From Hyphomicrobiales bacterium (GTDB taxonomy: Bacteria; Pseudomonadota; Alphaproteobacteria; Rhizobiales; JAJFHB01): a stretch of 49,407 nt of DNA. Below the pieces are notes generated by a model. The model saw only the letters and a program-made list of their open reading frames with translations, was not told the DNA's origin and searched no databases. Below are positions 7,091-22,825 of this stretch, piece after piece; within the stretch, counting starts at the first letter, position 1; each line of letters starts with the position of its first letter. The stretch covers positions 1 to 49,407 of the forward strand of contig JAJFHM010000115.1 of the NCBI GenBank assembly GCA_021775625.1, written 5' to 3'. Position numbers and translations under genes: made by a program.

Positions 7091-7226
7091 GATCCATCTC
7101 CCATGTTTCACCGGATTTTGTTTCGCGGCGATCAATTTTGTTGTAATTTTCTCGCCATCACTTTGGATTTTTCGACAACCGTTGTATTTTTCAACGCGAC
7201 CCAAAACCCGGTCAAATCGGTTCAAC

Positions 7227-8282
7227 ATGAAAACATTCAGCTCCTCAAGCGGATCGCCAACGCTCGTCGACTTCGTTCTCGTGCCGCGGTTCAACATGAT
7301 GGCGCTGACGGCGACCATCGAACCAATGCGCATCGCGAATTACCTCGCACCGGAAAGGCTCTATGAGTGGCACTATCTATCCGCTGAAGGTGGTGGCGTA
7401 GAGGCAAGCAACGGCATGGCGCTCGACACCATTCCGGTAGCAAAAAGAGTGGTCTCAGCCAGCGTGATATTTGCCTGCGGCAGCTGGGGTTGCGAACACT
7501 ACGAGAGCCCGGTGCTGTTTAACTGGTTGCGCCGGCAGGGGCGCAAAGGGGTTATACTGGGCGCCCTGGAACAGGGGGTTTATCTGCTTGCCCGGGCCGG
7601 CCTGATGTCCGGCCGGCGGGCGACCACACACTGGTCGTGCATCGCCGGCTTCGCCGAGCAGTTCCCGAAGATCTCGGTCAGCGAGCAACTCTTCACGGAA
7701 GACGGAAATCTGATCACCTGCGCAGGCGGCACTGCCGGCGTTGATCTGATGCTGCACCTGATTGCCCGTCAGCATGGCGATCAACTGGCCTCGGAAGTCG
7801 CCGACCAGGCTGTTCATTATCCGATCCGGCAGGCCGATACGCTGCAACGCCACACGCTCGGCGGAGCCACGGAAGATGTCCACCCGGACGTCAAGGCGGC
7901 GATCGACCTGATTGAAGCCAACATCGAAGAACCCTTGTCGGTTCCAGAGATCGCAGCAGAACTTGGAATTTCGCAGCGCCAGCTTGAACGGGTCTTCCGC
8001 CGCCATATGGGATGTTCGACGGTTCAGTTCGCCAGGCTCATAAGATTGCAGTATGCCCGGGTCCTCCTCACCAGCACCCGCATGTCGATCCGGGAAGTGT
8101 CAGCGGCCAGCGGATTCAACTCCATGTCGTATTTCTCGCAGAGCTTCGTTCAATGCTTCGGCAAGAGGCCGAGCGAGTATCGTTTGGCATGGCCTGACGA
8201 TGAGCTCGCGCCGGCCTGGCCGGGGACCGTGTTCTCTTTCACCGCGAACACCAAAATTACCTCCGAATCAAGCGCCGGCTGA
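7227..8282 (+). CDS. GlxA/CdhR/GbdR-type transcriptional regulator (DJ-1/PfpI-like domain plus AraC HTH)
   Basis: N-terminal [23 protein letters not shown] (GATase1-like sensor domain) and C-terminal AraC HTH ([23 protein letters not shown]...[11 protein letters not shown]). Divergent from the BKACE operon. Start taken at the ATG at 7227. Confidence 0.85.
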
Positions 8283-8510
8283 GCCTGCCGGCGCCGAATC
8301 GACCCGCACGGCTCCGGCCCCGCATCGTTCCTGTTTGGCAAGCACTTTCTGACTGATTTCCGCCGGAAAACTCCATTTGCGGGACGATCTTAACCAGCGC
8401 CACCAAATCGCCTTTTACCATCCGTGAAATCACCACAAGCCGTGCAACCGCGCGCCCAACTTGGGCGCTAGCACTGAGGCAGGGATGCAGTTAGGGGAGA
8501 TAACGGTCAA

Positions 8511-10892
8511 ATGCGCCCAATCAAAGCTTCAGTCATAGCGTGTCTTTCGCTTGGAGGAGCGGTGTGTCTTTACGCCGCCGATCTGATGCCGACGACTGAT
8601 AACGCTCAAGCCGGCGAAGAAATGTCGAACACGGCACAAGACAAACCTCAGCCCACAGGTGAGGATGCGCTCGCGGCACGGCTCCGTGCGTTCCTCGAAA
8701 CAAAGGAAAGCACCTCCAAGAAGGGCGACCTCAAGAGCTCTGAAGATGACGCTGCTTCCACGCCTGCTGCGGTCGAGACCGAGACGGACGACGACGCGTT
8801 GGACGCGGCAGTAGATCCAGAAGACATGGTTGAGGACGATGCTGAGGAAAGCGAAGAGGCATTGCTTGGTGAAGAGGCCGATGAAGATACGTCGGCCGAT
8901 GAAACAGCATCTGAAGACGCCGACGACGAAGAGGGTTTGCTCGCCGACGATACGGTGTCCGAAGAGACAGATAGCGACGAAGACTTGCTCGCGGACGATA
9001 CGGAAACGGAAGCAACTGAAGATGACACCGAACTGTCGGACTTGCCTGACGACGAGGACGACACCGAGGAGGACACAAACACCGAAAAGGCCGACGTTGA
9101 GGACGACAAGAAAGACAAGACGGTCACCGCGGACGCCGAACATCTGAACCTGTTTCTGGAAAACCGCTACCCGTCCGCCAACACATGCGGCGTGTGTCAC
9201 CCCAAGCACTATGACGAATGGTCGGTGTCGCAACATGCCTACGCGCAGATGAGCCCGGTCTATCTTTCCTTGAACAACCGGATCAACGAACTCTCCAACG
9301 GCTCGAATGGCGACTTCTGCCTGCGCTGCCACAGCCCGGTCGGCGCCAATCTTGGCGAAAGTTCCTTCATGTCCAATCTGGACCGGCACCCGACATCGCG
9401 CGAAGGCATTACCTGTGTCGTGTGCCACCGCATCAGCAAGGCATACAACAAGGCAAGTGGCCGGCTTGCGCTCGTCGAAGGCGGGTTGACCGACCCGGTG
9501 TTCGGGCCGACCGGCAATGACGGGCTGCAGGAGGTTCTGGCCAAACCGGAAACCTTCCGCGTCGTGACCGACCCCGACGAACCCGGACGCCAGATTCACG
9601 GCGAAGCGAAACTTTTCGATCCCATCACGACGCCGACGTTCTGCGGCTCATGCCACGACGTGACATTGTTCAACGGATTCCGGCTTGAAGAGGCGTTCAG
9701 CGAGTACCGCGTGTCGCCGGCAGCGGCCGAAGGCATCACCTGCCAGGATTGCCATATGGGCAAGGTGCAGGGCAAACCGTCGGGTTACGAGCAGGGCCCC
9801 GCAGCGATCGTCGGCGATGTCCCGACCAAGATCCGCAAGATCACCAGCCATCTGTTCTCCGGGCCGGATTATTCTCTTATTCATCCGGGCATTTTTCCGC
9901 ACAACGCGGAAGCCGCAGAGTTCAAGACGCTGCGCGAATGGTTGCAATTCAAGCACAAGGAAGGCTGGGGCACGGACAAGTTTGAGAATTCAGCGCCGGA
10001 CAATTACAAATTCCCGGAAACCTGGACTTCGATCGACGACCGCTACGATGCCCGCGAGATTCTCAACAAGCAGTTTGAGAAGCTGGAGCTGGCCCGCAAG
10101 AAGCGGTTGGAAATCCTCCGCATCGGCTTCCTTCTGGGCGATGTGGTTCCCGAACGCGCCAGCGAGAACGGCCTCTCGTTCCGGGTTCAGGTCAAAAACG
10201 GGACCAATGGCCACAACGTCCCCACCGGCTTCACCGGAGAACGCGTCATCTGGCTCGACGTCACCGTAACTGATGCCGAAGACAGCGTTGTTTTCCGGTC
10301 CGGCGACCGTGACAAGAATGGCGACCTGAAAGACGGGCACTCGTCATATGTCCATGCCGGCAAGGTCAAACGCGACAAGTATCTGTTCTCTTTGCAGTCG
10401 ACCTTTGTGGTGCAGAACGGACGTGGCGGTGAACTCGAACAGGTTATCCCGATCCCCTACCCGTCCTTTGCATTGCCGCGGGTTCTGCCATCTCCCAATT
10501 CGCTTATCTTCACTGGTGAGCCGGCGACCGAGCGCAATCACAAGAAGGGCATCGAACCCCTGGGCGAACGCTGGGCCTCTTACAAGGTCAGCCGCAACCA
10601 GCTGACCGGGAAAGGGCCGTACAAGGCGACCGTGAAACTGCGGGCGCAGGCGGTACCGGTCAACCTGCTGATCGCGATGCAGAATGTCGGCTTCGACTTC
10701 GGCATGACGCCAGCCCAACTTGGCAGAGAACTGGTTGCCGGGACACAGACGTTGTGGACGAAGGAGCTGACGTTCGATGTTGCGTCTTCGCTCACTCCGG
10801 TCGCAGCAACCACGTTCGATGCCAAGCCGGATGGCCCGATCAGCATCATCCCGACCCACCGCGCCAAAAAAAGCGAAATCGAACTCAAGTAA
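8511..10892 (+). CDS. Secreted pentahaem c-type cytochrome with a long N-terminal D/E-rich tract and a haem-free C-terminal domain
   Basis: Signal peptide MRPIKASVIACLSLGGAVCLYA. Five CxxCH motifs (CGVCH, CLRCH, CVVCH, CGSCH, CQDCH). Acidic tract at about residues 77-199. C-terminal ~330 aa have no haem motif (GHNVPTGFTGE...). AGGGGAGA lies upstream of the ATG. Confidence 0.85.
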   Translation: MRPIKASVIACLSLGGAVCLYAADLMPTTDNAQAGEEMSNTAQDKPQPTGEDALAARLRAFLETKESTSKKGDLKSSEDDAASTPAAVETETDDDALDAAVDPEDMVEDDAEESEEALLGEEADEDTSADETASEDADDEEGLLADDTVSEETDSDEDLLADDTETEATEDDTELSDLPDDEDDTEEDTNTEKADVEDDKKDKTVTADAEHLNLFLENRYPSANTCGVCHPKHYDEWSVSQHAYAQMSPVYLSLNNRINELSNGSNGDFCLRCHSPVGANLGESSFMSNLDRHPTSREGITCVVCHRISKAYNKASGRLALVEGGLTDPVFGPTGNDGLQEVLAKPETFRVVTDPDEPGRQIHGEAKLFDPITTPTFCGSCHDVTLFNGFRLEEAFSEYRVSPAAAEGITCQDCHMGKVQGKPSGYEQGPAAIVGDVPTKIRKITSHLFSGPDYSLIHPGIFPHNAEAAEFKTLREWLQFKHKEGWGTDKFENSAPDNYKFPETWTSIDDRYDAREILNKQFEKLELARKKRLEILRIGFLLGDVVPERASENGLSFRVQVKNGTNGHNVPTGFTGERVIWLDVTVTDAEDSVVFRSGDRDKNGDLKDGHSSYVHAGKVKRDKYLFSLQSTFVVQNGRGGELEQVIPIPYPSFALPRVLPSPNSLIFTGEPATERNHKKGIEPLGERWASYKVSRNQLTGKGPYKATVKLRAQAVPVNLLIAMQNVGFDFGMTPAQLGRELVAGTQTLWTKELTFDVASSLTPVAATTFDAKPDGPISIIPTHRAKKSEIELK

Positions 10893-11004
10893 CCACGCGC
10901 ATCCAACCCCAACGGACAGCATTCAGGCTGTCCGACGGGGCGGCCGCGTCACAGATTTTCCCGCCAGTTTGGTGGGCCCAGATCCAGAAGGATATCGCAG
11001 AGCC

Positions 11005-12630
11005 ATGAAAAGAAAGAACGGCCGAAGCTTTGTGCATCACACCTCAATTGTATTGGCTACAGCGGGCATGGTGCTGTGTATTTCCGGCATCGCGACCGCC
11101 GGCGCATCCGAAAGCGAAACCGAACCATGGTACAGCTGGTTCTGGCCGCTCGGTGAAAAGCAGGAAGTCGAGGAACTCAAGGACGAATATGTTCCGTTCC
11201 GGACTGAACGCGGCTCCACGCCCACACAAACCGAGGACGGCGAAACCACCATCACGGCGGAGAGCACCTGGTACTCAACCTTGTTCTCGCAAGGCGGAGA
11301 TCAAGACCGGCTCAAGGAAGACTTCAAACCTCTGGATACGTCCACGCGCAACCTGCCGCCGAGACCGACACTGTTCGCGGAAATAGGCGACGGGTTCCTC
11401 GATACCGGTCAGCTGGATGCGGGCTTTGAGGTTCCCGTCCTGGGCGCTGTCTGGCAGCCAAGGCTGTGGTCCTACTTCATTTATCGGACGGCGATCCAGT
11501 CCTTCGACAATGGCGCCCCTGGCGTCGAACGTGAGACCGAGTGGGCGCATCGTCTTGACCTGTTCGTCAATCTGCAGCTGACCGGCACAGAAAAGGTCGT
11601 GCTCGGGCTCCGGCCGTTTGACAACAATCGGCCGAACCAGTTCACCAGATACACCTTCTCCGGGATCAATGAAGGCTTCAACGATGAGTTCAACTACATT
11701 CCCGAAACTCTGTTCTTCGAAGGCGATCTGGGCAGCCTGTTTCCGGTGTTCGACCGGCGCGGTGTAATCCCGCTCGACTTCGGCTTCACGGTCGGGCGCC
11801 AGCCGATCACCTTTCAGGAAGGCATCCTGATCAACGACACAGTCGATGCGTTCGGCCTTATCCGCAACAATATCCCGGTTCCAGGGTTTTCCAATTTCCG
11901 CGTCTCTGGCATGTGGGCGTGGAACCGCCTCGACCGCAACGACATCGCCCGCAACTCGGATGAAGACATGTTCGCGCTGTTCGCCGCCGCGGACGGCCAC
12001 GTCAGCACCTACAATCTGGATATGATTTACGTTCGCGACGATGGCAATGGAGATGGCTTTTACGTCGGCGCATCCGCTATCCAGCGCATCGCCGCCCTCG
12101 ATGGAATGAGCACCGCATTCCGGGTCAATGCCTCCTTCGCACTGGAAGACGAAATCGCGGGAAACCCCGGCAATACTGTTGGTGACGGTGTTCTGCTGAC
12201 GGCGGAATTCTCCAAACATCCGCATGGTTCAGACGACATCGTTTACTTCAATCCGTTCCTCGCCATCGGCAATTTCACCCAGGCCGGACGCGAGCCGGTG
12301 GTCGGCGGCCCGCTGGCCAACACCGGCATACTGTTCGCCTCGCCCGCGCTGGCAAACTACGGGGCCGAACTCAATCCGTTTACCGATGACGACGTCGGCG
12401 CCGCCTTCGGCTACCAGGCATTCTGGGACAACAACCGCCGCAACCTGATCCTCGAGATCGCCGGCAAGCACAGCTATTCCGGTCAGGGCTTCGACACGCT
12501 CGGCTTCGGGCTGCAGTTGCAGCAGGCGGTTGGCCGGCACGTGCAGCTAACGTTCGAGGCCTTCTATGCCCTCAACGAAGACCGCGGCGACGGCGCAGGC
12601 GCCCGCGCGGAAGTACAGGTCGTGTACTGA
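11005..12630 (+). CDS. Outer-membrane beta-barrel (porin-like) protein
   Basis: Signal peptide (MKRKNGRSFVHHTSIVLATAGMVLCISGIATAGA), alternating hydrophobic beta-strand patterning throughout, and a C-terminal ...ARAEVQVVY with an aromatic last residue, typical of BAM substrates. Start set at the ATG at 11005; the track ORF from 10777 is over-extended. Confidence 0.7.
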   Translation: MKRKNGRSFVHHTSIVLATAGMVLCISGIATAGASESETEPWYSWFWPLGEKQEVEELKDEYVPFRTERGSTPTQTEDGETTITAESTWYSTLFSQGGDQDRLKEDFKPLDTSTRNLPPRPTLFAEIGDGFLDTGQLDAGFEVPVLGAVWQPRLWSYFIYRTAIQSFDNGAPGVERETEWAHRLDLFVNLQLTGTEKVVLGLRPFDNNRPNQFTRYTFSGINEGFNDEFNYIPETLFFEGDLGSLFPVFDRRGVIPLDFGFTVGRQPITFQEGILINDTVDAFGLIRNNIPVPGFSNFRVSGMWAWNRLDRNDIARNSDEDMFALFAAADGHVSTYNLDMIYVRDDGNGDGFYVGASAIQRIAALDGMSTAFRVNASFALEDEIAGNPGNTVGDGVLLTAEFSKHPHGSDDIVYFNPFLAIGNFTQAGREPVVGGPLANTGILFASPALANYGAELNPFTDDDVGAAFGYQAFWDNNRRNLILEIAGKHSYSGQGFDTLGFGLQLQQAVGRHVQLTFEAFYALNEDRGDGAGARAEVQVVY

Positions 12631-12681
12631 GCAAACCAAACCCGGTCACATTGACGAAAAGCGATACAGAAAGACAAAGAC

Positions 12682-13971
12682 ATGACGACATCCACAATCG
12701 CGGAAATTGGCGGACTGATGATTATCGCAGCCGTCACCCTTCAATTGCTGATGGGCCTCAGGGCCATGCGGGCACGCGCCTCCGAGCGCGGCCGGCATGG
12801 GTCTGCGATCACAGAGTTTAGCGTAGAACCAGCCGGACGGCCGGAGACCGCCACAACGTCGAACAGTGTTGAAACCGTTCTGTGGATGGGGAAAAGAAAG
12901 TTCCGCATTGCCAGGCGGATGTATGAAAACGAATCTCAGGACATCTGTTCTTACTATCTGGTGCCGCTGGACGAACGGGCCTTGCCCGGCTTTCGCCCGG
13001 GACAATTCCTGACCTTCGAGTTGCCGGTTCATGAGCAAGAGCATCCCGCGATGCGATGCTACTCTCTCTCGGAAAGCCCGACGGTGGATGAATATTACCG
13101 TATCTCGGTCAAGCGGTTGCCGGCTCCGGCAAACGCGCCTGAAAACACCCCGCCAGGCTTGTCATCCGGTTTTTTTCACGATGTTGCCCTTGAGGGCGAC
13201 ATCGTCGAAACGTTTGCTCCCACGGGCCAGTTCTGTCTCGATCAAGGCTCGAACCGTCCGGTTGTCCTGATCGCGGGAGGCGTTGGCCTGACACCTCTTT
13301 TGAGCATGCTGAACTGGCTCATCGACACTCGATCCGAGCGCGAGATCTGGCTGTTCTATGGGGTGCGGAACAGGTCCGACCACATTATGTATGACCACCT
13401 GAAGCGGGTGCGAAAAGAATGCCCGAACGTCAACATGTACATCTCCTACTCGCAGCCGACGCCAAACTGCCGGCCACGCGTTGACTACAATGTCCACGGG
13501 CACATAACAGTCGATCTCATACAATCTGTGCTGGGTGGCGATCAGTACGAATTTTACCTTTGCGGCCCAGCGGCCATGATGAATTCAATCCGGTCTGGCC
13601 TGACGGAGTGGGGCGTGCCGGCAGACGATATCCGCTCGGAAGCCTTTCAGGCACCCGCGCCTTCAAAACAGACATCCGTGGCCGACGGGACGATCGAGAC
13701 TGACGAGGAGCCAGGGGCATTTGAAGTAAAGTTCTCCCGCTCAGGCCGCATCCTGCGCTGGAACAAAGGCGTCGACACATTGCTCGAACTTGCCGAATCC
13801 AACGGTATCAAGATGCCCTGCAGCTGCCGTTCCGGGAACTGTGGTACGTGTCTCACGAGGCTCACCCAGGGAACCGTCGATTATGTTCACCCGCCGAGCA
13901 AGGAACATGAAGACGGCTCCTGCCTGCCCTGCATCGCGCGGCCGAAATCAGACCTCGTGCTCGATCTGTGA
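12682..13971 (+). CDS. Membrane-anchored ferredoxin-NAD(P)H reductase-type flavoprotein with a C-terminal plant-type [2Fe-2S] domain
   Basis: N-terminal TM helix (IAEIGGLMIIAAVTLQLLMGL) followed by a basic stretch, FAD motif RCYSLSESP, NAD(P) motif GGVGLTPLLSM, and a C-terminal C-x4-C-x2-C...C (CRSGNCGTC...CLPC). Confidence 0.85.
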   Translation: MTTSTIAEIGGLMIIAAVTLQLLMGLRAMRARASERGRHGSAITEFSVEPAGRPETATTSNSVETVLWMGKRKFRIARRMYENESQDICSYYLVPLDERALPGFRPGQFLTFELPVHEQEHPAMRCYSLSESPTVDEYYRISVKRLPAPANAPENTPPGLSSGFFHDVALEGDIVETFAPTGQFCLDQGSNRPVVLIAGGVGLTPLLSMLNWLIDTRSEREIWLFYGVRNRSDHIMYDHLKRVRKECPNVNMYISYSQPTPNCRPRVDYNVHGHITVDLIQSVLGGDQYEFYLCGPAAMMNSIRSGLTEWGVPADDIRSEAFQAPAPSKQTSVADGTIETDEEPGAFEVKFSRSGRILRWNKGVDTLLELAESNGIKMPCSCRSGNCGTCLTRLTQGTVDYVHPPSKEHEDGSCLPCIARPKSDLVLDL

Positions 13972-13998
13972 AATACGTGCCGCGGCGCTGTAGTCCCG

Positions 13999-16293
13999 TT
14001 ACCTGGGAACTTTGGTGTTCATGATCGGAGCCGTCACCCCGTCTACATGGTAGTCATGACACGTCAGGCAGCCATCATTTGCGGCGTCCGCCGTGTGACA
14101 GGCCGTGCAGACGTCTTTGCCCACGGGTTTGAAATTGGACGCGAAGGTCAAGGGATCGTAATCTTCGAAACCCTTTTGATAGGCTGCGGTCTGATCCAGC
14201 TGATGGCAGCTCAAACAACCTTTTTTATCGGGAAAGCCGAAATGCGGTTCATGCATGAACCGCGTGAAGCGGCCCAATTTGGCGGCCGATGTCGCCGTCC
14301 CCCAATTCACCTGCCGGGCGTCGGCGTTGTCTGCATCAATACTGTGGCACTTCGTGCACTGGCCTTGAGCATTCTTGTCGGTCAACACCGAAAACACGGC
14401 AGTTGCGGCAGGCGATGAACGCCCTGCGGACAGGTCGAACCACGCTTTAAAGAAAGTGTCGGCATGACCCACCGGCTTGTAGAGAACGGAATATTCCTGG
14501 CGGTACCAACCGCCGAACTCGGCCCAGGTCTGGGCGTCGACATTCAGAGGAGAGGCTGCGGGTTCCTCCTCGACGTCGTCCTCCTCAGATGAAACCTCCT
14601 CGCCGCTCGCCGTGTCGTCTGAAGCGGCCTCCTCCAGATCGTCGCCGTCGTCTTCGGACAGGATATCGGCGTCATCGTCTGTATCGGTACTGTCATCATC
14701 CGCGGTTGCGGCACTATCGGGGTCCTGTCCCGCGGTGGGTTCGCCAAGACCCGACAATTCGGTTCTGAACAAAGCGTCGGTCGAGTCCACCGCGCGGGCA
14801 AGATCACCCGCATCAATAGGGCGATGCGCCATCAATTCCGCTTCAACATCGGGCAACCAGTCGCGGATGGCGCCTGCGACCACGTCACGGGGCAGACTTG
14901 CGGTCAGCCTGGTGAGGGTGTCCGGGGCCATATTTCCGGCGTTATCAAAGCGCTTGAGCACCATGCTCGGTCTGACCGCCGAAAGCGCGTAGATCAGGGT
15001 CTTTATTTCCCAGGCAAACCACTCGACCGCGCGAAGCTCGCTCTCCGACGCCCCGTTCAGGTTCAAAAGATCCAGTTCGTTCACCAAGGCCAGCAAGGCC
15101 CTGCGATCTTCGTTCCAGCCGAGCAGCATGGTCGCAAACGGCGTTACGTTCGCTTCGGAGGCTTCCGGCCATTTTCCAACGTCAATGTTCCTGTCCGCGA
15201 GGGTTTGGACGTCGAGACCGGGAAGTGTGAGAAACTCAATACCCTGCGGCCCTGAAAGCCGTTCAGTGCCGGCAATCTGGTGCAGGTGACAGGAAGAACA
15301 GACCGTCTCGAACGGTTTGACGTTCATGTTCTTCTTGTCGGCGGCGAGCGTGTGGCAATCTGCGCAGGCCTCGGGAACCTGCTGAGATTGATCCTTCCTG
15401 GCGCGGGTCTTCTCGAAATGCTCTCCGAAGTGAGAGGCATGATCGAAGTTCGTCCGGGTGCGGCGGGCAAAAGGGTACTTGCGAAAACCGGGGTGCCCAT
15501 CCTCAAAGCTTGTGAACTGCGCTGCATGGCAGCCCTGACACCGATCTGCTGAAACCGCCGAAAGATCGGCAGCCACGCCACGGTGTTCCTTGTGACAGGA
15601 GGCGCAGAAAATACCATCCCCCACCGCTCTCGCAGTTGGGAATACCGCGTTGCCGACCCAACGCGACCAGGGGGTGCCTGTGGCGGTTTGCCCGGAACGG
15701 TTCCGGTCGGTCAGCGCTTTCAGCTTGTCCAGAGGCTGGCCGTGTGGTTGCAGAGCGTCTGTACTGAGCTGATGGCAGGACAGGCAGGCCTTGCTGTCTT
15801 GGCGTTCTGACGACGGCTTCACAATGGCATGGAGCCAGGCAAACCCTCCTTCAGTGATGTTTGAATGACAGGTGCCGCACTCTGCAATCGGGCTGTGCCC
15901 GGCGTGCATCGGACCAGGCACGATGATCATGGCGTCGCCGGCATAGGTCAATGCCAGCACGAATACTGCGAAAATCAGCGCCGCAGTCCAGCGTGTCACG
16001 GCAGTGCGCACTGACCGCAGGCTCCGGATCGGTCGGCACGGAAGTATGGCATGGGCACACATGCCGTCCTCACCCGGCCCCTCGGGACACGGCCCTCCCC
16101 TTGATGCCGGGCGGCGACACCGCCAGCGCTCGGCTGCCATTGCCGGCACGCACTCGAATGTCGCCTGGCATCCGCCGCGGTGATCGGGGCCCATGGGACA
16201 GGCGCGGCCCGCAGCCGACCTGCCGCAAATCCACTTGTCGTCGGATCTGCCGAACAAACCACCGCCGGTGATTGAGCCAAAGGAGAACGTCAA
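13999..16293 (-). CDS. Membrane-anchored decahaem c-type cytochrome with an N-terminal Cys-rich module and an internal acidic linker
   Basis: Ten CxxCH motifs: six in residues ~139-336 and four in ~646-746. TM/signal-anchor RWTAALIFAVFVLALTYAG. D/E linker at about 524-578. TTG start 3 nt after the upstream stop. An alternative ATG at residue 78 would remove the Cys-rich part. Confidence 0.8.
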   Translation of the reverse strand: MTFSFGSITGGGLFGRSDDKWICGRSAAGRACPMGPDHRGGCQATFECVPAMAAERWRCRRPASRGGPCPEGPGEDGMCAHAILPCRPIRSLRSVRTAVTRWTAALIFAVFVLALTYAGDAMIIVPGPMHAGHSPIAECGTCHSNITEGGFAWLHAIVKPSSERQDSKACLSCHQLSTDALQPHGQPLDKLKALTDRNRSGQTATGTPWSRWVGNAVFPTARAVGDGIFCASCHKEHRGVAADLSAVSADRCQGCHAAQFTSFEDGHPGFRKYPFARRTRTNFDHASHFGEHFEKTRARKDQSQQVPEACADCHTLAADKKNMNVKPFETVCSSCHLHQIAGTERLSGPQGIEFLTLPGLDVQTLADRNIDVGKWPEASEANVTPFATMLLGWNEDRRALLALVNELDLLNLNGASESELRAVEWFAWEIKTLIYALSAVRPSMVLKRFDNAGNMAPDTLTRLTASLPRDVVAGAIRDWLPDVEAELMAHRPIDAGDLARAVDSTDALFRTELSGLGEPTAGQDPDSAATADDDSTDTDDDADILSEDDGDDLEEAASDDTASGEEVSSEEDDVEEEPAASPLNVDAQTWAEFGGWYRQEYSVLYKPVGHADTFFKAWFDLSAGRSSPAATAVFSVLTDKNAQGQCTKCHSIDADNADARQVNWGTATSAAKLGRFTRFMHEPHFGFPDKKGCLSCHQLDQTAAYQKGFEDYDPLTFASNFKPVGKDVCTACHTADAANDGCLTCHDYHVDGVTAPIMNTKVPR

Positions 16294-16296
16294 GGC

Positions 16297-17109
16297 TTAA
16301 GGCACTCCCGCGGTGTAGGCGTAAATGACGGCGACGTGGAGCACGGCAAGCACGATCATTCCGTAGGTCGCAGGGATATGGACGAACAACCAGAGCCGCA
16401 GCAGCAGCTCATATGCATATCGGTTGTTCAGTGTGTTCTTCTCTGTAAGCACCTCCCGCATAGCCTGCATGGTTTGCTTGCCGCCATCGTCGAGACGTTT
16501 TTCAAGGCTGTCCATCTCCTCGCACAGGCGCCTGAACGTGGAAGGCGAACGCCGAAAAAGCCCAACGGTGCTGCTTGGGCCATTGAGAAATCCGGATAAC
16601 GTGTTGGCGTAGAAGTCGGTGATGCTCGGCGATGCGGCAACGCCTCCCACCCCCAGCACCAAGTCGTCGGCACGCTGCAGCAATTCAGTTTGCGCTGCCG
16701 GAAAATCATCAAAGGCAGTTCCGCCCCGGTTCTGTTCCAACTTTGACGGAACGCTGCGTGTCAGGTAGGCGCCGAATACGCCGCTCACAGCCAGGATCAC
16801 GAACAGTGCCCACAGTGCGGTTTCGAATATACCGGTCGGCCAGGCATATTGAGTGTGCAACGCAAACGCGGCCAGCAGGAAGAAACCTGCATAGATGTGC
16901 GCCCGCATCCACGACGACACATTGCCCAGGGGCAGCAGCGGGAACTTCCGGCGCAGGCTGAACAGCACTTGAACCCCACACCCCAGGAGCAGAATCCAAC
17001 CATCCAGAAAGCGCGCATCGCGCAGCGAAGCGTCGTAAACGCCGACCAGCCAGAACATCGCCGCAACGGCGAGAGCGGTCAGCAGGCTGTGTCGTATGAG
17101 ATCGCGCAT
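16297..17109 (-). CDS. Integral membrane protein (about 5 TM) with two H-x13-H pairs; candidate dihaem b-type cytochrome
   Basis: Hydrophobic helices; HIYAGFFLLAAFALH and HIPATYGMIVLAVLH sit on two helices predicted to run in the same direction; a ~120-aa soluble loop lies between TM4 and TM5. ATG at 17107-17109 is preceded by GGAG. The gene overlaps the upstream gene by about 31 nt. Confidence 0.65.
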   Translation of the reverse strand: MRDLIRHSLLTALAVAAMFWLVGVYDASLRDARFLDGWILLLGCGVQVLFSLRRKFPLLPLGNVSSWMRAHIYAGFFLLAAFALHTQYAWPTGIFETALWALFVILAVSGVFGAYLTRSVPSKLEQNRGGTAFDDFPAAQTELLQRADDLVLGVGGVAASPSITDFYANTLSGFLNGPSSTVGLFRRSPSTFRRLCEEMDSLEKRLDDGGKQTMQAMREVLTEKNTLNNRYAYELLLRLWLFVHIPATYGMIVLAVLHVAVIYAYTAGVP

Positions 17110-18743
17110 AGCCACTCCGAAAGGCCATTGGTGTCGCGCAGATCGACCCGCACAAGCGCGTCGTGCGGACAGGCGCGCTCACAGGCCGGGCCGCCCTTGC
17201 GGCCGGCACACAGGTCGCATTTTTCCGCCCGCTGAATTTGAACGCCATCCTCGTCGACCAGAAACGCTCCACCGGGATCGCGCACGTCAGCCATTTGAAT
17301 ATTGTCATAGGGGCACGCCTTGGCGCAGGCCGCACAGCCGATGCAGGTTGCCTCATCGATCACCACGGTACCGCTCACTTTGTCACGGTGAATGGCACCG
17401 GTGGGACAGTCGACCAGGCAAACCGGATCGAAACAATGCATGCAGGCCTGGGCAACCATCAGGTTGTGATGTGTGGGGCCTTTTCGGGCAAAACGCGCAA
17501 CACCGTCATGTGCCGCGGCGCAGGCGCGGACGCAGTCGTCGCAGTTGACGCAGCGTTCGGTGTTTATCGCCATCGCCATGGCCCCGTTGGTGTAGCGGTT
17601 GTCGACAAAAAACTCCGTGTAGGACCGCGGCAGGTTCGCCTTGGCGGATGGTTTTGCCGAACCGAGCGTCGCCCTGGCCTTGCGGGCGTACCTCTCCGGC
17701 AGATCGGACAGCACGTGCGCCGCAACGATCTGTGTCGGGATCCGCACCAGATCGGCATAGCCGACCGCACGAAAACCGTTCGGGAACTTGAGCTCGCCCT
17801 GCCCTTCAGCGGTGCCCAGAATTTGCGGCAGGCCGATGATGCCATTTTTCGTGATGTACCCCGTCGTCCGTTCCTCATGTCCGAGCCGTTCGGTGACACG
17901 GATGGTTCCTGAGTGGACCAGCAACAGACCATCGAGATAATGATCCTGCTCGGCAATAATGGGTTCCCGCTCGATGGCCGGGACATGACCGTTTGCGCTG
18001 GAAGCGGATTTTTGGAACCGGTGTGTCCAGTCAACATCGCCATAGCGCTCGAACGTTGCGTTCTCGGCAATCTGAAGCAGTGTCCGGTCATCGACATTCG
18101 CAAACAACGAGCTTCCCTGAAGGCAGTTCCACAAGCCCCACTGACGATACTGATCCTGCATTCTCTCGCGGAACGGATCCGACCAGCGCATGAGCTCCCG
18201 TAGTGCCGGCCACCGCAGCTCTAGGAGCAGTGTATCGTCGTCTTCAACCATGACCGAGGCGGTTCGCGGAGATCTCGAAAATGCACCCAGAACACCGAAC
18301 AGATCATAACGGCCAAGGGACAGCACCGGAGGGCTGCAGACGCCGGGCTTGAGCGATGGATCGGGGTCCAACCCTTGGTTCCTGCGCGCCGTTTGCCGCA
18401 GACCCGTGAGTGCGCGAAGCAGCGATCCGATCCGGGCTGCCGGTTTGGATCCTTCACTGCTCCGCACCGGCATCAGGCTCTTTACGTTGCCCCTGAGAAC
18501 GACGAATACAGAGGTGCCGTACTCACCGGCGCGATAAACCATGTCGCCTTTTGAATAGCGGACAACGCGGGTGTCGTTGGCAATGATCTCGGACAGCGGG
18601 CTTGCGTCCGGGAATGCGTCGGCATCGACATCTTCAAACAGCGGAATGGAAAGCATGGCCTTCACATCCTGCGTCGGCACCGGCGTTCCCCCGAATGGTA
18701 TCGCCCACTTCCTTGGTCTTTCCGTCTGCTGGACCCTCACCAA
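17079..18743 (-). CDS. Cytoplasmic protein with two cyclic-nucleotide-binding-like domains fused to a DmsB/NrfC-type 4x[4Fe-4S] ferredoxin module
   Basis: cNMP-like beta-roll regions (VVRYSKGDMVYRAGEYGTSVFVVLRGNV; LLLVHSGTIRVTER). Four Cys groups: CVNCDDCVRAC, CMHCFDPVCLVDCP, CIGCAACAKACP, CDLCAGRKGGPACERACP. No Tat or Sec signal. GGAGG lies upstream of TTG/GTG starts at 18743/18740. Confidence 0.8.
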   Translation of the reverse strand: MVRVQQTERPRKWAIPFGGTPVPTQDVKAMLSIPLFEDVDADAFPDASPLSEIIANDTRVVRYSKGDMVYRAGEYGTSVFVVLRGNVKSLMPVRSSEGSKPAARIGSLLRALTGLRQTARRNQGLDPDPSLKPGVCSPPVLSLGRYDLFGVLGAFSRSPRTASVMVEDDDTLLLELRWPALRELMRWSDPFRERMQDQYRQWGLWNCLQGSSLFANVDDRTLLQIAENATFERYGDVDWTHRFQKSASSANGHVPAIEREPIIAEQDHYLDGLLLVHSGTIRVTERLGHEERTTGYITKNGIIGLPQILGTAEGQGELKFPNGFRAVGYADLVRIPTQIVAAHVLSDLPERYARKARATLGSAKPSAKANLPRSYTEFFVDNRYTNGAMAMAINTERCVNCDDCVRACAAAHDGVARFARKGPTHHNLMVAQACMHCFDPVCLVDCPTGAIHRDKVSGTVVIDEATCIGCAACAKACPYDNIQMADVRDPGGAFLVDEDGVQIQRAEKCDLCAGRKGGPACERACPHDALVRVDLRDTNGLSEWLCAISYDTAC

Positions 18744-18790
18744 CCTGCCTCCAAGTTATTAGCCTCTGTATGGCGCCTGCGCCGAAAGCA

Positions 18791-19795
18791 TCACTTCGCC
18801 GGCTTACCTTTGTATTTGTTTGGTTTCGGGATCATCGCGTCGAGTTTCGCGAAGCGTTTCCCGTCATACCGTGTGACCAGCGCCACCGCCTCAACGGCGA
18901 TCTTGTCGGCCACCCTTGTCAGCACCTTGTCGTTGTTGAGCTTGAGCTTTGCCTTCTTCGACAAAGCCACAATTTTCTTGAGCTCTTCGACCTTCGGAAG
19001 CGCCTTCGCGATCGCCCTGAGCTTCTTGCGCGCCTTCGCTGCCCGCTTTGCCATCTTGACCGCGTATTTCTTTTTCTTGGTTGCCTTGCCGACGGCCCGA
19101 ATGGCGGTTTCGTATTCAACAATTGCGCCCACAAGGAACATCATCCGCTTGCGCGCAGGGGTTGCCTTCTTGTTCTCTTCGCCCTTCGTGTACCAGACAT
19201 TGTGGCGCACTTCGCCCTGTGACCAGGACACCAGCTCAAACTTGCTGCCGGCGGGATGTCCGCCCACGTTGACCAGCTTTTCCTGCGGCACAACGTGGCA
19301 GCTGTAACAATTCTTCGCCAGCTTGTACAAGGCACTGGGCCTGATCAATCCGAGCTTCTCGGACTTCTGCCAGCGCGCCCTGGCCTGGGCTTTAGATTCA
19401 AGCTCCTTCTTCTTGTTGCCGCTAAATTCCGCGTGAACTTTGATCCAGTCCTTGCCTTCCGAATGACACAGCTCGCAGGAAATCCCCGCAATCGGTTCGG
19501 TCTTCTTGCCCTTCGTCTGATTTGTGAAATGGCAGTTCAGGCACAGGCTCTCCGACTTGATGCGCTTGATCTTCATTTTCCTGGAGATCTTTTTGGCCTG
19601 TTTGCTGCGCGGCATTTTGCGGAAGGTCGTGAAGTGGTGCGTGCTTCTCCACACTGTCGCCTCGTCCCGGTGACATTCCGCACATTCGTCAGGCCCTTCA
19701 ATTTTTTTCGGATTTGTATCCGCACTTGCCCCGGTGCCCGACACCAGCGCGATGATGGCGCCGGCCACGGCCATTTTCATAATCTGAAATTGCAT
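18791..19795 (-). CDS. Secreted tetrahaem c-type cytochrome (c554-like) with a strongly basic K-rich C-terminal region
   Basis: Signal peptide MQFQIMKMAVAGAIIALVSGTGASA. Four CxxCH motifs: CAECH, CLNCH, CELCH, CYSCH. The C-terminal ~130 aa are about 30% K/R by hand count. Confidence 0.85.
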   Translation of the reverse strand: MQFQIMKMAVAGAIIALVSGTGASADTNPKKIEGPDECAECHRDEATVWRSTHHFTTFRKMPRSKQAKKISRKMKIKRIKSESLCLNCHFTNQTKGKKTEPIAGISCELCHSEGKDWIKVHAEFSGNKKKELESKAQARARWQKSEKLGLIRPSALYKLAKNCYSCHVVPQEKLVNVGGHPAGSKFELVSWSQGEVRHNVWYTKGEENKKATPARKRMMFLVGAIVEYETAIRAVGKATKKKKYAVKMAKRAAKARKKLRAIAKALPKVEELKKIVALSKKAKLKLNNDKVLTRVADKIAVEAVALVTRYDGKRFAKLDAMIPKPNKYKGKPAK

Positions 19796-19962
19796 ACGTT
19801 ATTCGCCCATGACCCCTAATGGAGTGCGTCCCTGATTCAGATCGTCCGATAGCTGATACTGGGGGTGGATACTTCAGGACACCCGACTGCCACCGCTTCC
19901 CCGCTGGGCAATGCAGCCGCACCCCTCTACTCACCACTCACCGTGAGAAAAAGCCCGCCAAG

Positions 19963-20226
19963 CTAGTTCAGGCCGAGCAGACCCATAGCTTCTGCCAGGG
20001 CCTTTACGGCTTCGCCGTGATTGCCGCTTGTGTGCAGTTCCTCTCCCTGCCTGCGCAGAGCCTCCACTTTCGTCCGATCGGAGGCACTGAGTTCCGCAGT
20101 CGGAAGGGCTGCATCAATTTTTCCCATATCGACCGGGCAATGAAATGCTGATGCCGACACGGTCATGAACAACAACACCATGAGCGCGAACACGGTTGCA
20201 GTCGCAATAAGCGGACGCGTAAACAT
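19963..20226 (-). CDS. Small secreted hypothetical protein (87 aa)
   Basis: ATG at 20224-20226 with GGGAGA 8 nt upstream. Signal peptide MFTRPLIATATVFALMVLLFMTVSASA; the mature part is helical-looking (FHCPVDMGKIDAAL...). First gene of the minus-strand cytochrome operon. Confidence 0.6.
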   Translation of the reverse strand: MFTRPLIATATVFALMVLLFMTVSASAFHCPVDMGKIDAALPTAELSASDRTKVEALRRQGEELHTSGNHGEAVKALAEAMGLLGLN

Positions 20227-20402
20227 TCTTCGATCTCCCTGCTGAAACAATCCTGTCTCCCCAGACCTTGCCGGCCCGTTTGATTTTCATTGCACAGAGA
20301 ATTCCGGAGTTTCGTGTCCGGAGTGGCTTCGAAACCGGTCAATTTGAAGGAATCATTGCGTTAAAAACGGGGCAACCGATTCGGGGTTAAACGCAATCCC
20401 GC

Positions 20403-21137
20403 TCAGTCAACTGTCGTGCTGCGGTTTTCCAGAGAATTTAACTCCAGGAACCGCTGGAGCGCTTTCTTGGCGTCGGCCCGGATGAGCCGCGGGGGCTGAC
20501 CTTCTCCGGAGATGATTACGTAGCGCCACAAAGGAGATGTGAGAGCTTTCTCACACCTTTCTTCCGGCGTGGAGAACAAGGAGATGTTGAAGGTCTGATC
20601 AATGTCTGAAATCTGGTCGCCCTGCATCACGAGCATTGGAATGTCCGGGCTTGTCCGAACCGGTTTATCGTCTTCGAGATCACAGTGGTGACCTGTGATG
20701 ATCACACTGCTCACCGGCACATCCAGGGACAGGGCGACACTGCCGCCTTCCCCATGTCCCCACAGGATAATCGGCTCATCCGGGTAACGTTGCTTCAGTA
20801 TTCGCAGTGACCGGACCGCCTGACGGAGCCTGAGTTCGATTATCTGCTCGAGGTCGGCGTACGGGTAGGCACAGGCCGCCGTGGGTCTGGTCTCAGCAAA
20901 GCTGTCCGGCACGAAGAGCTTGTAACCGTTACGCTCGAAATACTCGTTCCAGTCGACCGCCGGAAATACTGCGCAACCGTGCAGGGAGAGCACGATACCG
21001 CGTTCCGGCGGGGCCTTGGATGTGTATCCCTGTTCTAGCGGTGGGTCGGCTTCGCCTCGGGCACCGGTACCGGGAATCAGGCACAGGGCGAACCCTATCA
21101 TGGCCAGGCCAAGGCGAAGCATTCGGGTCGCGTCCAT
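20403..21137 (-). CDS. Secreted alpha/beta-hydrolase-fold-like protein with an atypical nucleophile elbow
   Basis: ATG at 21135-21137 with AGGAG upstream. Signal peptide MDATRMLRLGLAMIGFALCLIPGTGA. Fold-like pattern VLSLHGC...ILWGHGEGGSVAL...MLVMQGDQ. The family assignment is weak. Confidence 0.5.
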   Translation of the reverse strand: MDATRMLRLGLAMIGFALCLIPGTGARGEADPPLEQGYTSKAPPERGIVLSLHGCAVFPAVDWNEYFERNGYKLFVPDSFAETRPTAACAYPYADLEQIIELRLRQAVRSLRILKQRYPDEPIILWGHGEGGSVALSLDVPVSSVIITGHHCDLEDDKPVRTSPDIPMLVMQGDQISDIDQTFNISLFSTPEERCEKALTSPLWRYVIISGEGQPPRLIRADAKKALQRFLELNSLENRSTTVD

Positions 21138-21292
21138 CTGGAAACTCCTGAACTTTCTGCAGACCTCACCTCCATGATAAGCAATTCGTTGGCACAATCC
21201 AGACGAAGCGCCACGGACGAACGCCAATTTGCACCCGGCATTGCAGCAGATAGACAATCAAATGCGCCTGCCGCATTATCTCCGACTTCGAA

Positions 21293-22678
21293 ATGACGAC
21301 AGAGACGGGAGCAGGCAAAATTCAGTGGCAACAGCAAAATTTGGTCCCGCCGGATCACGGGCTTCCAGTGCTTGGCGAGTTCGATGCGGTGGTGGTGGGA
21401 TCCGGGGCTGCCGGTGTGGCGGCGGCGGAAACCCTCGCCCGCAAAGGGCATTCCGTCCTGATCGTGGAGCGCTATGGGTTTTCAGGCGGCAATGCTGTTG
21501 CCGGTCTGTCTGGCACGATCTGCGGCATGTACATGTCGAGCGAACGGCACTCCAACCGGCCTGAGCAGGCGGTATTCGGCTTTGCCGAGCGGTTCCGGGA
21601 AGTCATGCAGGCGGCAGGCGGCATCACCACTGCGCAACGCTATGGCCGCACCTGGACCCATTGCCACGACCCGCTGGCGTGGCGCGAGGCCGCCGACCGC
21701 TTTCTCAGCCTGGACGCGATCAAGGTGCTTTATCACTGCATGGTCCAGGGTGTGGTGATGGAAGATGACATTGTGCGCGGCGTGGTTATTGATTCCAAGG
21801 CGGGCCGCGCCGTGGCGCTGGGCAAAATCATCGTCGATGCCAGCGGAGATGCCGACGTGGCCTTTCGCGCCGGCATGGACTACACAAGCGGACAGGATGG
21901 AACGGTACAGAATCCGACCATGATATTCCGCCTGTCCGATGTCGATCTTGACCGGTTCCTGGCCAACTGGGGATCCGACACCATCTGCTCCGCGGAAGTC
22001 ACCCAGGCGATCATCGATGCGAATGCAAGCGGGTCCTATGATCTGCCGAGAGCCAAGATCTGGATCTTCCCGACACCGCGTCCGGGGCAACTGCTGGTGA
22101 ATGCCACGCGCCTGGTTGGGCGCGATGGCCGCGAGCTCTATCCAGCCGACCCGGAAGACCTTACGGAAGCGGAACTCGTGGGGCGCCATCAGGTGCGCGA
22201 ATATGCCCGGTTCCTGCGCGACAAGATCCCCGGGTGCGAACAAAGCTTCGTCAACGACACCGGCGTACAGGCCGGCATCCGGCAGAGCCGGTCGATCGTT
22301 GGGATTGACCGGCTGACAAATGACGACGTGGTCGGACGGCGCAAGCGGCCCGACGGCATCGTGCGCTCGCCATGGCCGATCGAATTGCACTCCGGCGAGA
22401 AACCGAAGCTGGAGTGGCTCGACGATGACTATTACGAAGTGCCCTATGGCGCCCTCATTCCGGAGGTGGGCGAGAACCTCATCATCGCCGGCCGCTGCCT
22501 GAGCGCCGAACATGAAGCGTTGGCGTCGTGCCGGGTGACCGCGCAGTGTTTCGGCTATGGCCATGCCGCCGGCATTGCGGCAGCGGAAGCGATCACCAGC
22601 GGCACGTCAATCCGCAACCTGCAGGGTGAGCACATTCGGGAACTCCTGAATGGAGACGGCGCCCGGCTCGACGGCTGA
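21293..22678 (+). CDS. FAD-dependent oxidoreductase (FAD_oxidored/GIDA-like family)
   Basis: Dinucleotide-binding motif FDAVVVGSGAAGVAAAETLARKGHSVLIVER. Size and C-terminal pattern (LIIAGRCLS...AQCFGYGHAAG) fit the PF12831-type family. Start uncertain (no clear SD). Confidence 0.7.
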   Translation: MTTETGAGKIQWQQQNLVPPDHGLPVLGEFDAVVVGSGAAGVAAAETLARKGHSVLIVERYGFSGGNAVAGLSGTICGMYMSSERHSNRPEQAVFGFAERFREVMQAAGGITTAQRYGRTWTHCHDPLAWREAADRFLSLDAIKVLYHCMVQGVVMEDDIVRGVVIDSKAGRAVALGKIIVDASGDADVAFRAGMDYTSGQDGTVQNPTMIFRLSDVDLDRFLANWGSDTICSAEVTQAIIDANASGSYDLPRAKIWIFPTPRPGQLLVNATRLVGRDGRELYPADPEDLTEAELVGRHQVREYARFLRDKIPGCEQSFVNDTGVQAGIRQSRSIVGIDRLTNDDVVGRRKRPDGIVRSPWPIELHSGEKPKLEWLDDDYYEVPYGALIPEVGENLIIAGRCLSAEHEALASCRVTAQCFGYGHAAGIAAAEAITSGTSIRNLQGEHIRELLNGDGARLDG

Positions 22679-22825
22679 TGATTCGTGGACGCCGGATGCC
22701 CGGTGGGCCGGGCTTATGGATAAGTAATATATTGCCAGCCTCACCCTGACCGGTTGTCACTCCATGGACAATGTTATGTCTGTGCACCATTATTTTGCGC
22801 CGCATTGATTTGGGAGGATCCGGCG

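Follow-up and report, generated by a model that had tools for sequence, protein, structure and literature searches.

The ptd locus

The window, as the whole analysed stretch of 49,407 nucleotides from a Hyphomicrobiales bacterium (contig JAJFHM010000115.1) is called here, contains eight open reading frames (orfs) in two convergent groups, seven of which make up what is, judged by its sequence, a rearranged ptdABCDEFG cluster. On the forward strand, ptdA (8511-10892) encodes a secreted pentahaem cytochrome of the c552/MccSep family, ptdB (11005-12630) an outer-membrane beta-barrel of about 18-20 predicted strands, and ptdC (12682-13971) an FNR-type NAD(P)H flavoprotein with an N-terminal transmembrane (TM) anchor and a C-terminal plant-type [2Fe-2S] domain. 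On the reverse strand, ptdD (18791-19795) encodes a secreted tetrahaem cytochrome of the c554 type; ptdE (17079-18743) a protein with tandem cyclic nucleoside monophosphate (cNMP)-binding-type domains (about 17709-18656) and a predicted four-cluster ferredoxin module (about 17124-17591); ptdF (16297-17109) a five-TM protein with two H-x13-H pairs, a candidate dihaem-b relay; and ptdG (13999-16293) a decahaem c-type cytochrome with one TM anchor and an N-terminal module of eight cysteines in a conserved pattern (residues 1-98, 16000-16293). The eighth orf (19963-20226, reverse strand) encodes a small secreted protein of 87 amino acids that is lineage-specific and lies outside the conserved ptd set.

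An earlier note on this DNA, made from the sequence alone, gave the same coordinates and strands for the eight orfs and counted 19 CxxCH motifs, as found here (five in PtdA, ten in PtdG, four in PtdD). The gene spacings also agree with those recomputed: ptdE and ptdF overlap by 31 nucleotides, 3 nucleotides separate ptdF from ptdG, 47 separate ptdD from ptdE, 167 separate the small gene from ptdD, and the convergent stop codons are 27 bp apart. The overlap of ptdE with ptdF and the 3-nucleotide gap that follows suggest translational coupling. Searches of Pfam and NCBIfam profiles backed the note's domain calls for the flavoprotein, the Fe-S protein and the three cytochromes, the last of which match the Cytochrome_C554, Paired_CXXCH and MtrC-domain families; the barrel, the membrane protein and the small protein had no above-threshold match in these two collections.

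Correspondence to the ptdABCDEFG cluster

A set of this composition has been named ptdABCDEFG, for penta-, tetra- and deca-haem, in a preprint of 2023/24 (bioRxiv 10.1101/2023.11.21.568154). The preprint describes PtdA as a pentahaem cytochrome with a beta-sandwich, PtdB as a porin, PtdC as a FAD/NAD(P) oxidoreductase, PtdD as a tetrahaem cytochrome, PtdE as a cNMP-binding 4Fe-4S protein, PtdF as a transmembrane 'ferric reductase-like' protein and PtdG as a decahaem cytochrome. Its authors take the set for a putative porin-cytochrome complex that may serve in extracellular electron transfer, and they report high transcription in an ocean oxygen-deficient zone. Table S7 of the preprint includes contigs of Tistlia consotensis (FWZX01000031) and Ferruginivarius sediminum (QPMH01000006), both of which were fetched independently among the loci examined here (as L044 and L022). 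All seven homologues are present in each, in the order ABCDEFG, with identities to the window proteins (A to G, by tblastn) of 55, 41, 45, 56, 40, 30 and 32% in Tistlia and 57, 42, 43, 52, 43, 32 and 36% in Ferruginivarius. The name ptd, which we take to have been given by Elbon, Stewart and Glass, was found in no other paper by a literature search.

The seven-protein content that defines ptd is also that of the window, as established by motif counts, by Pfam and NCBIfam matches, by the structural model of PtdB and by the profile of PtdA. Because the two contigs listed in the preprint hold all seven homologues in order, the statement in the earlier note that this combination is not a described system is wrong: the set already had a name, and the same porin-cytochrome reading had been attached to it. 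The note had allowed for a match to an already characterised complex; what the window matches is a described complex and not a characterised one.

The ptd clusters of the preprint share with the window all seven proteins and their domain content, at 30-57% identity per protein, and their hosts are marine or saline, as are the hosts considered here. In contrast to the single colinear operon of those clusters, the window has ABC facing DEFG, a rearranged order of unchanged content; it also carries the additional lineage-specific small gene, and the cNMP-binding cassette of its PtdE lacks the glutamate.

Distribution and synteny

Relatives of PtdE number more than 3,300 in the protein collection, and at least 576 species-representative genomes encode one, belonging to Alpha- and Gammaproteobacteria, Planctomycetota, Verrucomicrobiota, Nitrospinota and SAR324. 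Synteny was examined with the window proteins by tblastn in the 80 best PtdE loci of these at least 576 and in Roseibium sp. Sym1 (L001), 81 loci together, to which L082 was added as the nearest relative, a Logan contig with a PtdE 92% identical to that of the window and with downstream neighbours that are also common to the window.

Among the 81 loci, 30 have the order ABCDEFG, 11 have CDEFG only, and 8 have DEFG facing CBA as in the window; the rest show other permutations or are truncated by the ends of contigs. The layout of the window is confined to Hyphomicrobiales, Methyloligellaceae and Anderseniella-type relatives (the 8 loci and L082). In the 47 loci where ptdE is flanked by 8 kb or more in each direction, ptdC, ptdD, ptdF and ptdG were each present in 46, and ptdA and ptdB in 34. 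The genes ptdA and ptdB are adjacent to each other in all 34 loci that have either, and about one quarter of loci have neither inside 10 kb; in L052 and L066, ptdD accompanies ptdA and ptdB. The near-universal core of the system is ptdC, ptdEFG and usually ptdD, and ptdAB is an optional terminal pair. The gene-neighbourhood analysis that the earlier note had proposed came out in its favour for seven of the eight genes, which are syntenic in dozens of species, far beyond chance.

The eighth gene, which the note had taken as part of the set, is not conserved. It lies outside the conserved set because only L082 has a counterpart, which carries a precomputed match to Pfam family PF27144 (PA14_33160); no homologue was found in the 81 other loci, of which L002 has only a stop-interrupted remnant of the signal peptide, and the small gene was accordingly rejected as an eighth ptd member. 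The local Pfam copy did not report PF27144 for the window protein. The gene is located upstream of ptdD and is preceded by a good Shine-Dalgarno sequence.

Cytoplasmic proteins PtdC and PtdE

PtdC matches the Pfam families NAD_binding_1 (E = 8e-18) and Fer2 (2e-12), passes the threshold of NAD_binding_6, and matches the NCBIfam models for the Hmp reductase region (2e-66) and NqrF (1e-26). Its motifs RCYS (residues 125-128), GGxGxxP (199-205) and CGP (294-296) and its cysteines C382, C387, C390 and C417 are retained in at least 90% of 67 homologues. By direct reading of the sequence, an N-terminal hydrophobic TM helix is followed by a K/R-rich stretch, from which the catalytic domain is deduced to face the cytoplasm. 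NqrF of the Na+-translocating NADH:quinone oxidoreductase is likewise a membrane-anchored module of 2Fe-2S, FAD and NAD(P)H domains, but the order of the domains is swapped.

PtdE has an above-cutoff match to cNMP_binding (2e-15, 57 bits) and matches to multiple Fer4 families of Pfam. Its homologues align with 16 invariant cysteines in four motifs, and therefore four [4Fe-4S] clusters are predicted. The closest solved relatives of the Fe-S module in profile searches are HycB3 (2.6e-26), HycB4, HycB, NrfC and FdnH, and matches to HydN, DmsB and DsrO fell under the equivalog cutoffs of NCBIfam. The 16 cysteines and the HycB/FdnH-type relatives bear out the earlier note's assignment of four clusters to a cytoplasmic protein and support it better than the two 4Fe-4S clusters given in the preprint. 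In a profile search, the N-terminal half of PtdE matches the tandem cNMP-binding regulatory domains of PKA and PKG. Direct reading of the sequence found no export signal or Tat motif, and PtdE is assigned to the cytoplasm on its sequence.

Possible regulation by cyclic nucleotides

Outside the ptd set, the gene that recurs most often as a neighbour encodes a class III adenylate/guanylate cyclase, which carries a CHASE2 sensor domain in some loci. A cyclase gene lies inside 4 kb in 16 loci of several phyla and inside 10 kb in 21 of 82 loci; in Pirellulales it directly adjoins ptdC and is divergent from it. Examples are L025:5306-7195, L049:6008-7576 and L064:17626-19707, with 18 further loci. 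In two loci of Planctomycetota that have no ptdA or ptdB (L030:4454-6256 and L037:5658-7421, one of them from Ca. Uabimicrobium amorphum), a Ser/Thr protein kinase adjoins ptdC in the position of the cyclase of other lineages, and PtdC and PtdE of these loci are about 100 residues longer.

The cNMP-binding cassette FGE...R[ST]A is found in PtdE of 76 of 82 homologues, and every one of the 21 near a cyclase is among them. The glutamate is missing from six (the window, L002, L003, L004, L009 and L068), which are all of the Hyphomicrobiales type, and none of these is near a cyclase. PtdE of the window has the cassette FGV...RTAS, with the arginine present and the glutamate lost, and no cyclase gene was found in the window. 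The earlier note called this protein cNMP-gated, which fits the family, where 76 of 82 cassettes and the neighbouring cyclases indicate that binding of cAMP or cGMP to PtdE probably controls the chain in most members. For the copy in the window such control is doubtful because the glutamate is lost and there is no cyclase nearby; this copy has probably lost it.

Membrane proteins PtdF and PtdG

The 270-residue PtdF contains two H-x13-H pairs, H71/H85 and H244/H258, as the earlier note had observed; all four histidines are invariant in 38 homologues and again in a set of 43 sequences. An AlphaFold model built from the 43 homologues (predicted local distance difference test score, pLDDT, 85; predicted TM-score 0.76) begins with four TM helices, continues with a soluble helical insert of some 110 residues and ends in one long helix; the histidine pairs fall on TM3 and TM5, within the predicted helices 64-85 and 208-266. 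A positive-inside tally puts the N-terminus and the TM2-3 loop, both K/R-rich, in the cytoplasm together with the insert, and the C-terminus in the periplasm; owing to this topology, one histidine pair would lie near each face of the membrane. Such geometry in the model is as expected for two stacked haems and makes PtdF a candidate dihaem-b relay.

PtdF resembles NOX, FRE and MsrQ-Fre systems in an analogous predicted route, from NAD(P)H through flavin to two stacked transmembrane haems held by histidine pairs of TM3 and TM5 and on to an acceptor on the outer side, the pairs being spaced about 13 residues apart in both. Homology of sequence or fold to Ferric_reduct, NOX, STEAP or MsrQ was not found, however: there is no Ferric_reduct match in Pfam, where the only match is to DUF4405 (21.8 bits against a cutoff of 26.7), and the 'ferric reductase-like' label that the preprint gives to PtdF is unsupported here by sequence or fold searches (Pfam, profile search of PDB sequences, Foldseek), as is any other assignment of PtdF as a ferric-reductase, NOX or cytochrome b homologue. 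PtdF also differs from NOX and FRE in having five TM helices and a large cytoplasmic insert, and the system differs in having a separate flavoprotein, an interposed four-cluster Fe-S protein and a ten-haem cytochrome as acceptor. An apparent fusion of PtdF to PtdG in L029, which would have forced another topology on PtdF, was rejected: a TAA stop codon separates the two genes.

PtdG retains its ten CxxCH motifs in 67 of 73 homologues, with ten further conserved histidines, and has no relative in the PDB at the sequence level. An acidic insert is situated between haems 6 and 7. Its N-terminus is formed by two tandem units of the pattern C-x8/9-C-x2-GP-x3-G-x-C-x5/6-C-x-P, after which come an Arg-rich stretch and then the TM helix. 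The cysteines C23, C32, C42, C48, C59, C69, C79 and C86 each recur in 90% or more of the 73 homologues. This eight-cysteine module is present in 581 representative proteins, which are almost invariably 600-1100 amino acids long and have it at residues 15-100 or so. No Pfam family covers it, and no mention of it was found in the available portion of the preprint. The module is predicted to be cytoplasmic because arginines precede the TM helix and the haem domain must be periplasmic. Judged by its sequence, the module may bind a metal or an Fe-S cluster, or may serve for docking beside PtdE and PtdF.

Periplasmic and outer-membrane proteins PtdD, PtdA and PtdB

PtdD matches Cytochrome_C554 of Pfam (2e-14) and cytochrome c554 of the PDB (1BVB, 4e-6). 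It has conserved distal histidines H54, H121, H180 and H198 and a Lys-rich C-terminal tail, and is likely the periplasmic link between PtdG and PtdA.

PtdA consists of a Sec signal peptide, an acidic low-complexity N-terminus of about 170 residues, a five-haem cap and a C-terminal beta-sandwich with the motif GHNVPTGF. It matches cytochrome c552 of T. tepidum (PDB 5ZE8) over haems 1-5 and the sandwich motif (1e-6 with the single sequence, 5e-16 with the profile) and, with the profile, MccSep of Geobacter ExtKL (9WT8, 3.5e-3). The five CxxCH motifs of PtdA follow one another as in these members of the pentahaem 'PHC' family, with which it also has SxHA, CxxCHM and beta-sandwich GHxxPxG motifs in common. 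MccSep is a periplasmic polysulfide/selenite reductase, localised experimentally, in which haem 2 is ligated by Cys239 near Sec325, and its gene is clustered with that of the porin-like ExtI in Geobacter. PtdA, in contrast, lacks the His/Cys ligand of haem 2 and the selenocysteine. Sec325 of MccSep (GHSIPDGU) aligns to the conserved F574 of PtdA (GHNVPTGF), and the cysteine ligand of c552 and MccSep aligns to the conserved L392/E393, in a low-confidence loop with a shift of one residue between c552 and MccSep. No conserved cysteine other than those of the haem motifs was found among 47 PtdA homologues, which instead conserve four extra histidines (H242, H363, H447 and H568). PtdA is further set apart from c552 and MccSep by some 150 additional residues that separate haem 5 from the sandwich and by its long acidic N-terminal extension. 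On the strength of these alignments, PtdA shares the c552/MccSep fold but not its known catalytic site, and it was rejected as a selenocysteine or cysteine enzyme of the MccSep type. A lipoprotein assignment was also rejected, as no conserved lipobox was found in PtdA homologues.

The earlier note's outer-membrane barrel is corroborated: the AlphaFold2 model of PtdB has about 18-20 long strands, Foldseek matches it to outer-membrane barrels, and 45 of 48 homologues end in F, Y or W. The strands have pLDDT of about 75-88, with a mean of 65.7 for a model in which some 120 N-terminal residues are disordered. The top Foldseek matches are the 18-strand substrate channels C. jejuni MOMP, ChiP, OprD/Occ and AlgE (3e-11 to 1e-8), and the top 50 are channels of 16-18 strands that include no MtrB-type sheath. 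PtdB accordingly models as a channel of the OprD/AlgE type, and its identification as MtrB-like is unsupported.

Several of these proteins carry strongly charged segments. In the window the net charge is -63 for the N-terminus of PtdA (8613-9140, forward strand), -41 for the insert of PtdG (about 14550-14730, reverse strand) and +29 for the tail of PtdD (18791-19190, reverse strand). The corresponding family medians are -11.5, -22.5 and +5, the charges of PtdA and PtdD do not co-vary, and of the three segments the acidic insert of PtdG alone is common across the family. Conserved electrostatic docking of acidic PtdA and PtdG with the basic tail of PtdD was for these reasons set aside as not general; the charged segments could serve in metal binding, docking or salt adaptation.

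Comparison with other electron transfer systems

Like the Mtr, Pio and Mto systems and the Geobacter porin-cytochrome conduits, ptd has a multihaem cytochrome gene beside an outer-membrane barrel gene and has periplasmic multihaem carriers earlier in the chain. The barrel of Mtr, Pio and Mto is of the large MtrB/PioB type with about 26 strands, whereas the model of PtdB is OprD/AlgE-like; the cytochrome beside it is an MtrA-type decahaem protein, whereas that of the window is a c552-type pentahaem protein with a beta-sandwich, which scores 28.3 bits against the DmsE/MtrA family model TIGR03508 (cutoff 192.2). No surface lipoprotein cytochrome is encoded in ptd. Electrons enter the Mtr and Geobacter systems from quinol through CymA, ImcH or CbcL; entry in ptd would be from NAD(P)H through an Fe-S protein and a membrane protein with histidine pairs.

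The Tmc and Hmc complexes of sulfate reducers have the same three tiers of a periplasmic multihaem cytochrome c, a membrane haem protein and a cytoplasmic Fe-S protein. In contrast to them, the eight proteins of the window include no CCG/HdrD subunit and no NrfD or HdrE/NarI-type cytochrome b by Pfam or NCBIfam, which likewise detected no MtrA-like or NapC/CymA module, absences that the earlier note had recorded. Matches to TmcA, HmcA and HmcB are far under the cutoffs. Moreover, the HycB/FdnH-like Fe-S subunit of ptd carries fused cNMP-binding domains, the system includes an NAD(P)H flavoprotein, and electron flow is likely outward in ptd and inward in Tmc and Hmc.

Flanking genes and signals

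The CoA-transferase, ACAD, BKACE, AraC/GlxA regulator and SdhA/B-like flavoprotein genes that flank the cluster were rejected as ptd partners, being unconserved beside other ptd clusters. The regulator gene (7089-8282, forward strand; DJ-1/PfpI and HTH_18 domains) is directly upstream of ptdA. The longest orfs of this gene and of the BKACE gene (6206-7333, reverse strand) overlap by about 245 nucleotides, so that at least one of the two start codons is probably further downstream. On the other side, a likely three-gene operon (21293-25527, forward strand) encodes FAD_oxidored, a flavoprotein like SdhA/FrdA and a Fer2_3/Fer4 protein like SdhB. No membrane anchor gene is evident in it, and its place beside ptd is conserved in the nearest relative, L082, alone.

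No Rfam match was found within 7000-21500, promoter prediction around the locus gave as many promoters as expected from shuffled sequence, and no terminator-like match convincingly closes either operon in the 27-bp gap.

Proposed path of electrons

The ptd proteins are probably, though by no means assuredly, a quinone-independent chain that exports electrons outward from cytoplasmic NAD(P)H. From its anchor in the inner membrane, PtdC would oxidise NAD(P)H by means of FAD and its [2Fe-2S] cluster, and the electrons would run along the four [4Fe-4S] clusters of cytoplasmic PtdE to PtdF, where two haems held by the histidine pairs would carry them over the membrane, the partners being placed in their inferred order and the sites presumed to hold their cofactors. 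The ten periplasmic haems of PtdG, anchored beside PtdF and contributing its cytoplasmic eight-cysteine module, would receive the electrons, and soluble tetrahaem PtdD would shuttle them to pentahaem PtdA, acting with the outer-membrane channel PtdB. At this last step either electrons would cross the outer membrane or a substrate would enter through PtdB. CDEFG would be the conserved engine and AB an optional terminal module. The co-occurrence of ptdC and ptdE with ptdF and ptdG in 46 of 47 loci argues for one chain with NAD(P)H entry. Since NAD(P)H has a redox potential of about -320 mV and the membrane potential is negative inside, the redox drop and the membrane potential both favour outward flow.

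The earlier note had assigned the proteins to every compartment of the envelope. The placement of PtdC and PtdE in the cytoplasm, PtdF in the membrane, PtdG and PtdD in the periplasm, and PtdA and PtdB as a barrel-pentahaem pair stands, and the link to the outer membrane is its weakest part: PtdB is channel-like and does not resemble MtrB, the solved relatives of PtdA are periplasmic, and about a quarter of loci do without the pair.

Several points weigh against the proposed chain as a whole. The preprint (bioRxiv 10.1101/2023.11.21.568154) calls the function of ptd completely unknown. The synteny frequencies may be biased, coming as they do from the best PtdE matches. Contact between PtdC and PtdE is deduced only from the co-occurrence of their genes. 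The profile of PtdF matched no PDB sequence, and the best Foldseek match of its model to solved folds had an E-value of 0.5, although all-helical membrane folds are hard for Foldseek; haem binding by PtdF is read from histidine geometry alone because no known haem-b membrane fold was matched, and by its sequence PtdF could possibly contain a quinone site.

Alternative explanations

The first alternative departs from the proposed chain only at the last step: PtdA, or part of it, would be inserted in PtdB as a true porin-cytochrome conduit, passing electrons to or from extracellular Fe(III), Mn(IV), an electrode or a donor. We consider it possible but doubtful. The multihaem gene adjoins the barrel gene wherever one of them is present (34 of 34 loci), and such adjacency is the signature of the Mtr, Pio and Geobacter conduits. 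PtdA looks like a pure carrier that needs an acceptor beyond itself, because it has four invariant distal histidines and none of the catalytic cysteine or selenocysteine of MccSep. A connection between the c552 family and an archaeal extracellular cytochrome nanowire has been reported (PMC11976967), and ptdAB is highly transcribed in an anoxic water column with Fe reduction, according to the preprint (bioRxiv 10.1101/2023.11.21.568154). However, the folds closest to PtdB are those of the OprD/Occ, AlgE, ChiP and MOMP channels and not of MtrB, and so small a barrel would be unlikely to accommodate a folded haem protein of about 590 residues. The score of PtdA against the DmsE/MtrA family is only 28 bits of the 192 required, the cluster encodes no surface lipoprotein like MtrC, and a conserved lipobox is missing from PtdA itself. 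Both solved relatives of PtdA are periplasmic, MccSep by experiment. Many of the hosts, moreover, are presumably aerobic heterotrophs or nitrite oxidisers and not metal respirers.

An explanation to which we give the same limited credence places a terminal reductase in the periplasm: by analogy to Geobacter ExtKL/MccSep, encoded beside the porin ExtI, PtdA would act on a soluble substrate that enters through PtdB, and CDEFG would supply electrons from NAD(P)H. Here the channel-like fold of PtdB becomes an argument in favour, since it resembles substrate-specific channels, and so does the architecture that PtdA has in common with c552 and MccSep (five-haem cap and GHxxPxG beta-sandwich), the latter being a periplasmic polysulfide/selenite reductase. 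The 11 loci with CDEFG only also fit, because the occurrence of CDEFG without AB indicates that delivery of electrons to the periplasm is the conserved function. The distal position of haem 2 aligns to L392/E393, which offers no ligand residue, and an unusual or open haem site is possible there, but the alignment of this loop is of low confidence, with its one-residue shift between c552 and MccSep. The same conserved residues, with F574, replace Cys239 and Sec325 of MccSep, PtdA has no CxxCK or other known catalytic haem signature, and no substrate can be named.

An inward or quinone-linked module, in which PtdF would be a quinol:cytochrome oxidoreductase or periplasmic donors would feed the cytoplasm as in Tmc and Hmc, with PtdE and PtdC reducing a cytoplasmic acceptor or NAD(P)+, is highly improbable, for although a periplasmic cytochrome c, a dihaem protein in the membrane and an Fe-S protein in the cytoplasm are laid out much as in TmcABC and NarHI/FdnHI, the Fe-S module of PtdE is of the FdnH/NarH/HmcB type, FNR-type enzymes are reversible and the cluster occurs in nitrite-oxidising Nitrospinota (L052, and in the list of the preprint), no NrfD, NarI, NapC/CymA or CCG/HdrD module was detected by Pfam or NCBIfam, neither sequence nor fold matches PtdF to a quinone-reactive cytochrome b, inward flow would oppose the membrane potential and be uphill to NAD(P)+ for donors above about -470 mV, and the 46 of 47 loci cited above argue for NAD(P)H entry.

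Significance

The window adds no new kind of system; it holds a rearranged member of the already named ptd. The interest lies in the ptd system overall and in the details added here, rather than in this locus: the distinction of a CDEFG core from an AB accessory pair, the association with cyclases and cyclic nucleotides, the type of barrel, the lack of catalytic residues in PtdA, and the recognition of PtdF and the cysteine domain of PtdG as two distinct modules.

A quinone-independent chain from NAD(P)H to the outside would dissipate energy and not conserve it. Its hosts, among them Roseibium, Tistlia, Lacipirellula, Bythopirellula and Nitrospinota, we take to be mostly aerobic. Together these considerations lead away from classic metal respiration and towards a regulated redox valve or a dedicated periplasmic or extracellular reduction. 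As a speculation to which we attach little probability, ptd might be a multi-subunit functional analogue of NADPH oxidase, a quinone-independent valve governed by a second messenger and without energy conservation, with O2 (yielding superoxide), Fe(III), Mn(III) or sulfur or nitrogen species as the acceptor. To our knowledge, the enzymes of extracellular superoxide production and metal reduction in aerobic marine heterotrophs are largely unidentified; if the analogy were true, ptd could be a source of these NAD(P)H-dependent activities, PtdF would be a new transmembrane dihaem family, and the eight-cysteine module of PtdG would be a new cytoplasmic metal site. If the more general proposal of NAD(P)H-fed, quinone-independent export holds, ptd would give mostly aerobic marine bacteria a new route by which to spend reducing power outside the cytoplasm, with possible relevance to the iron, manganese, sulfur, nitrogen and reactive-oxygen chemistry of seawater.

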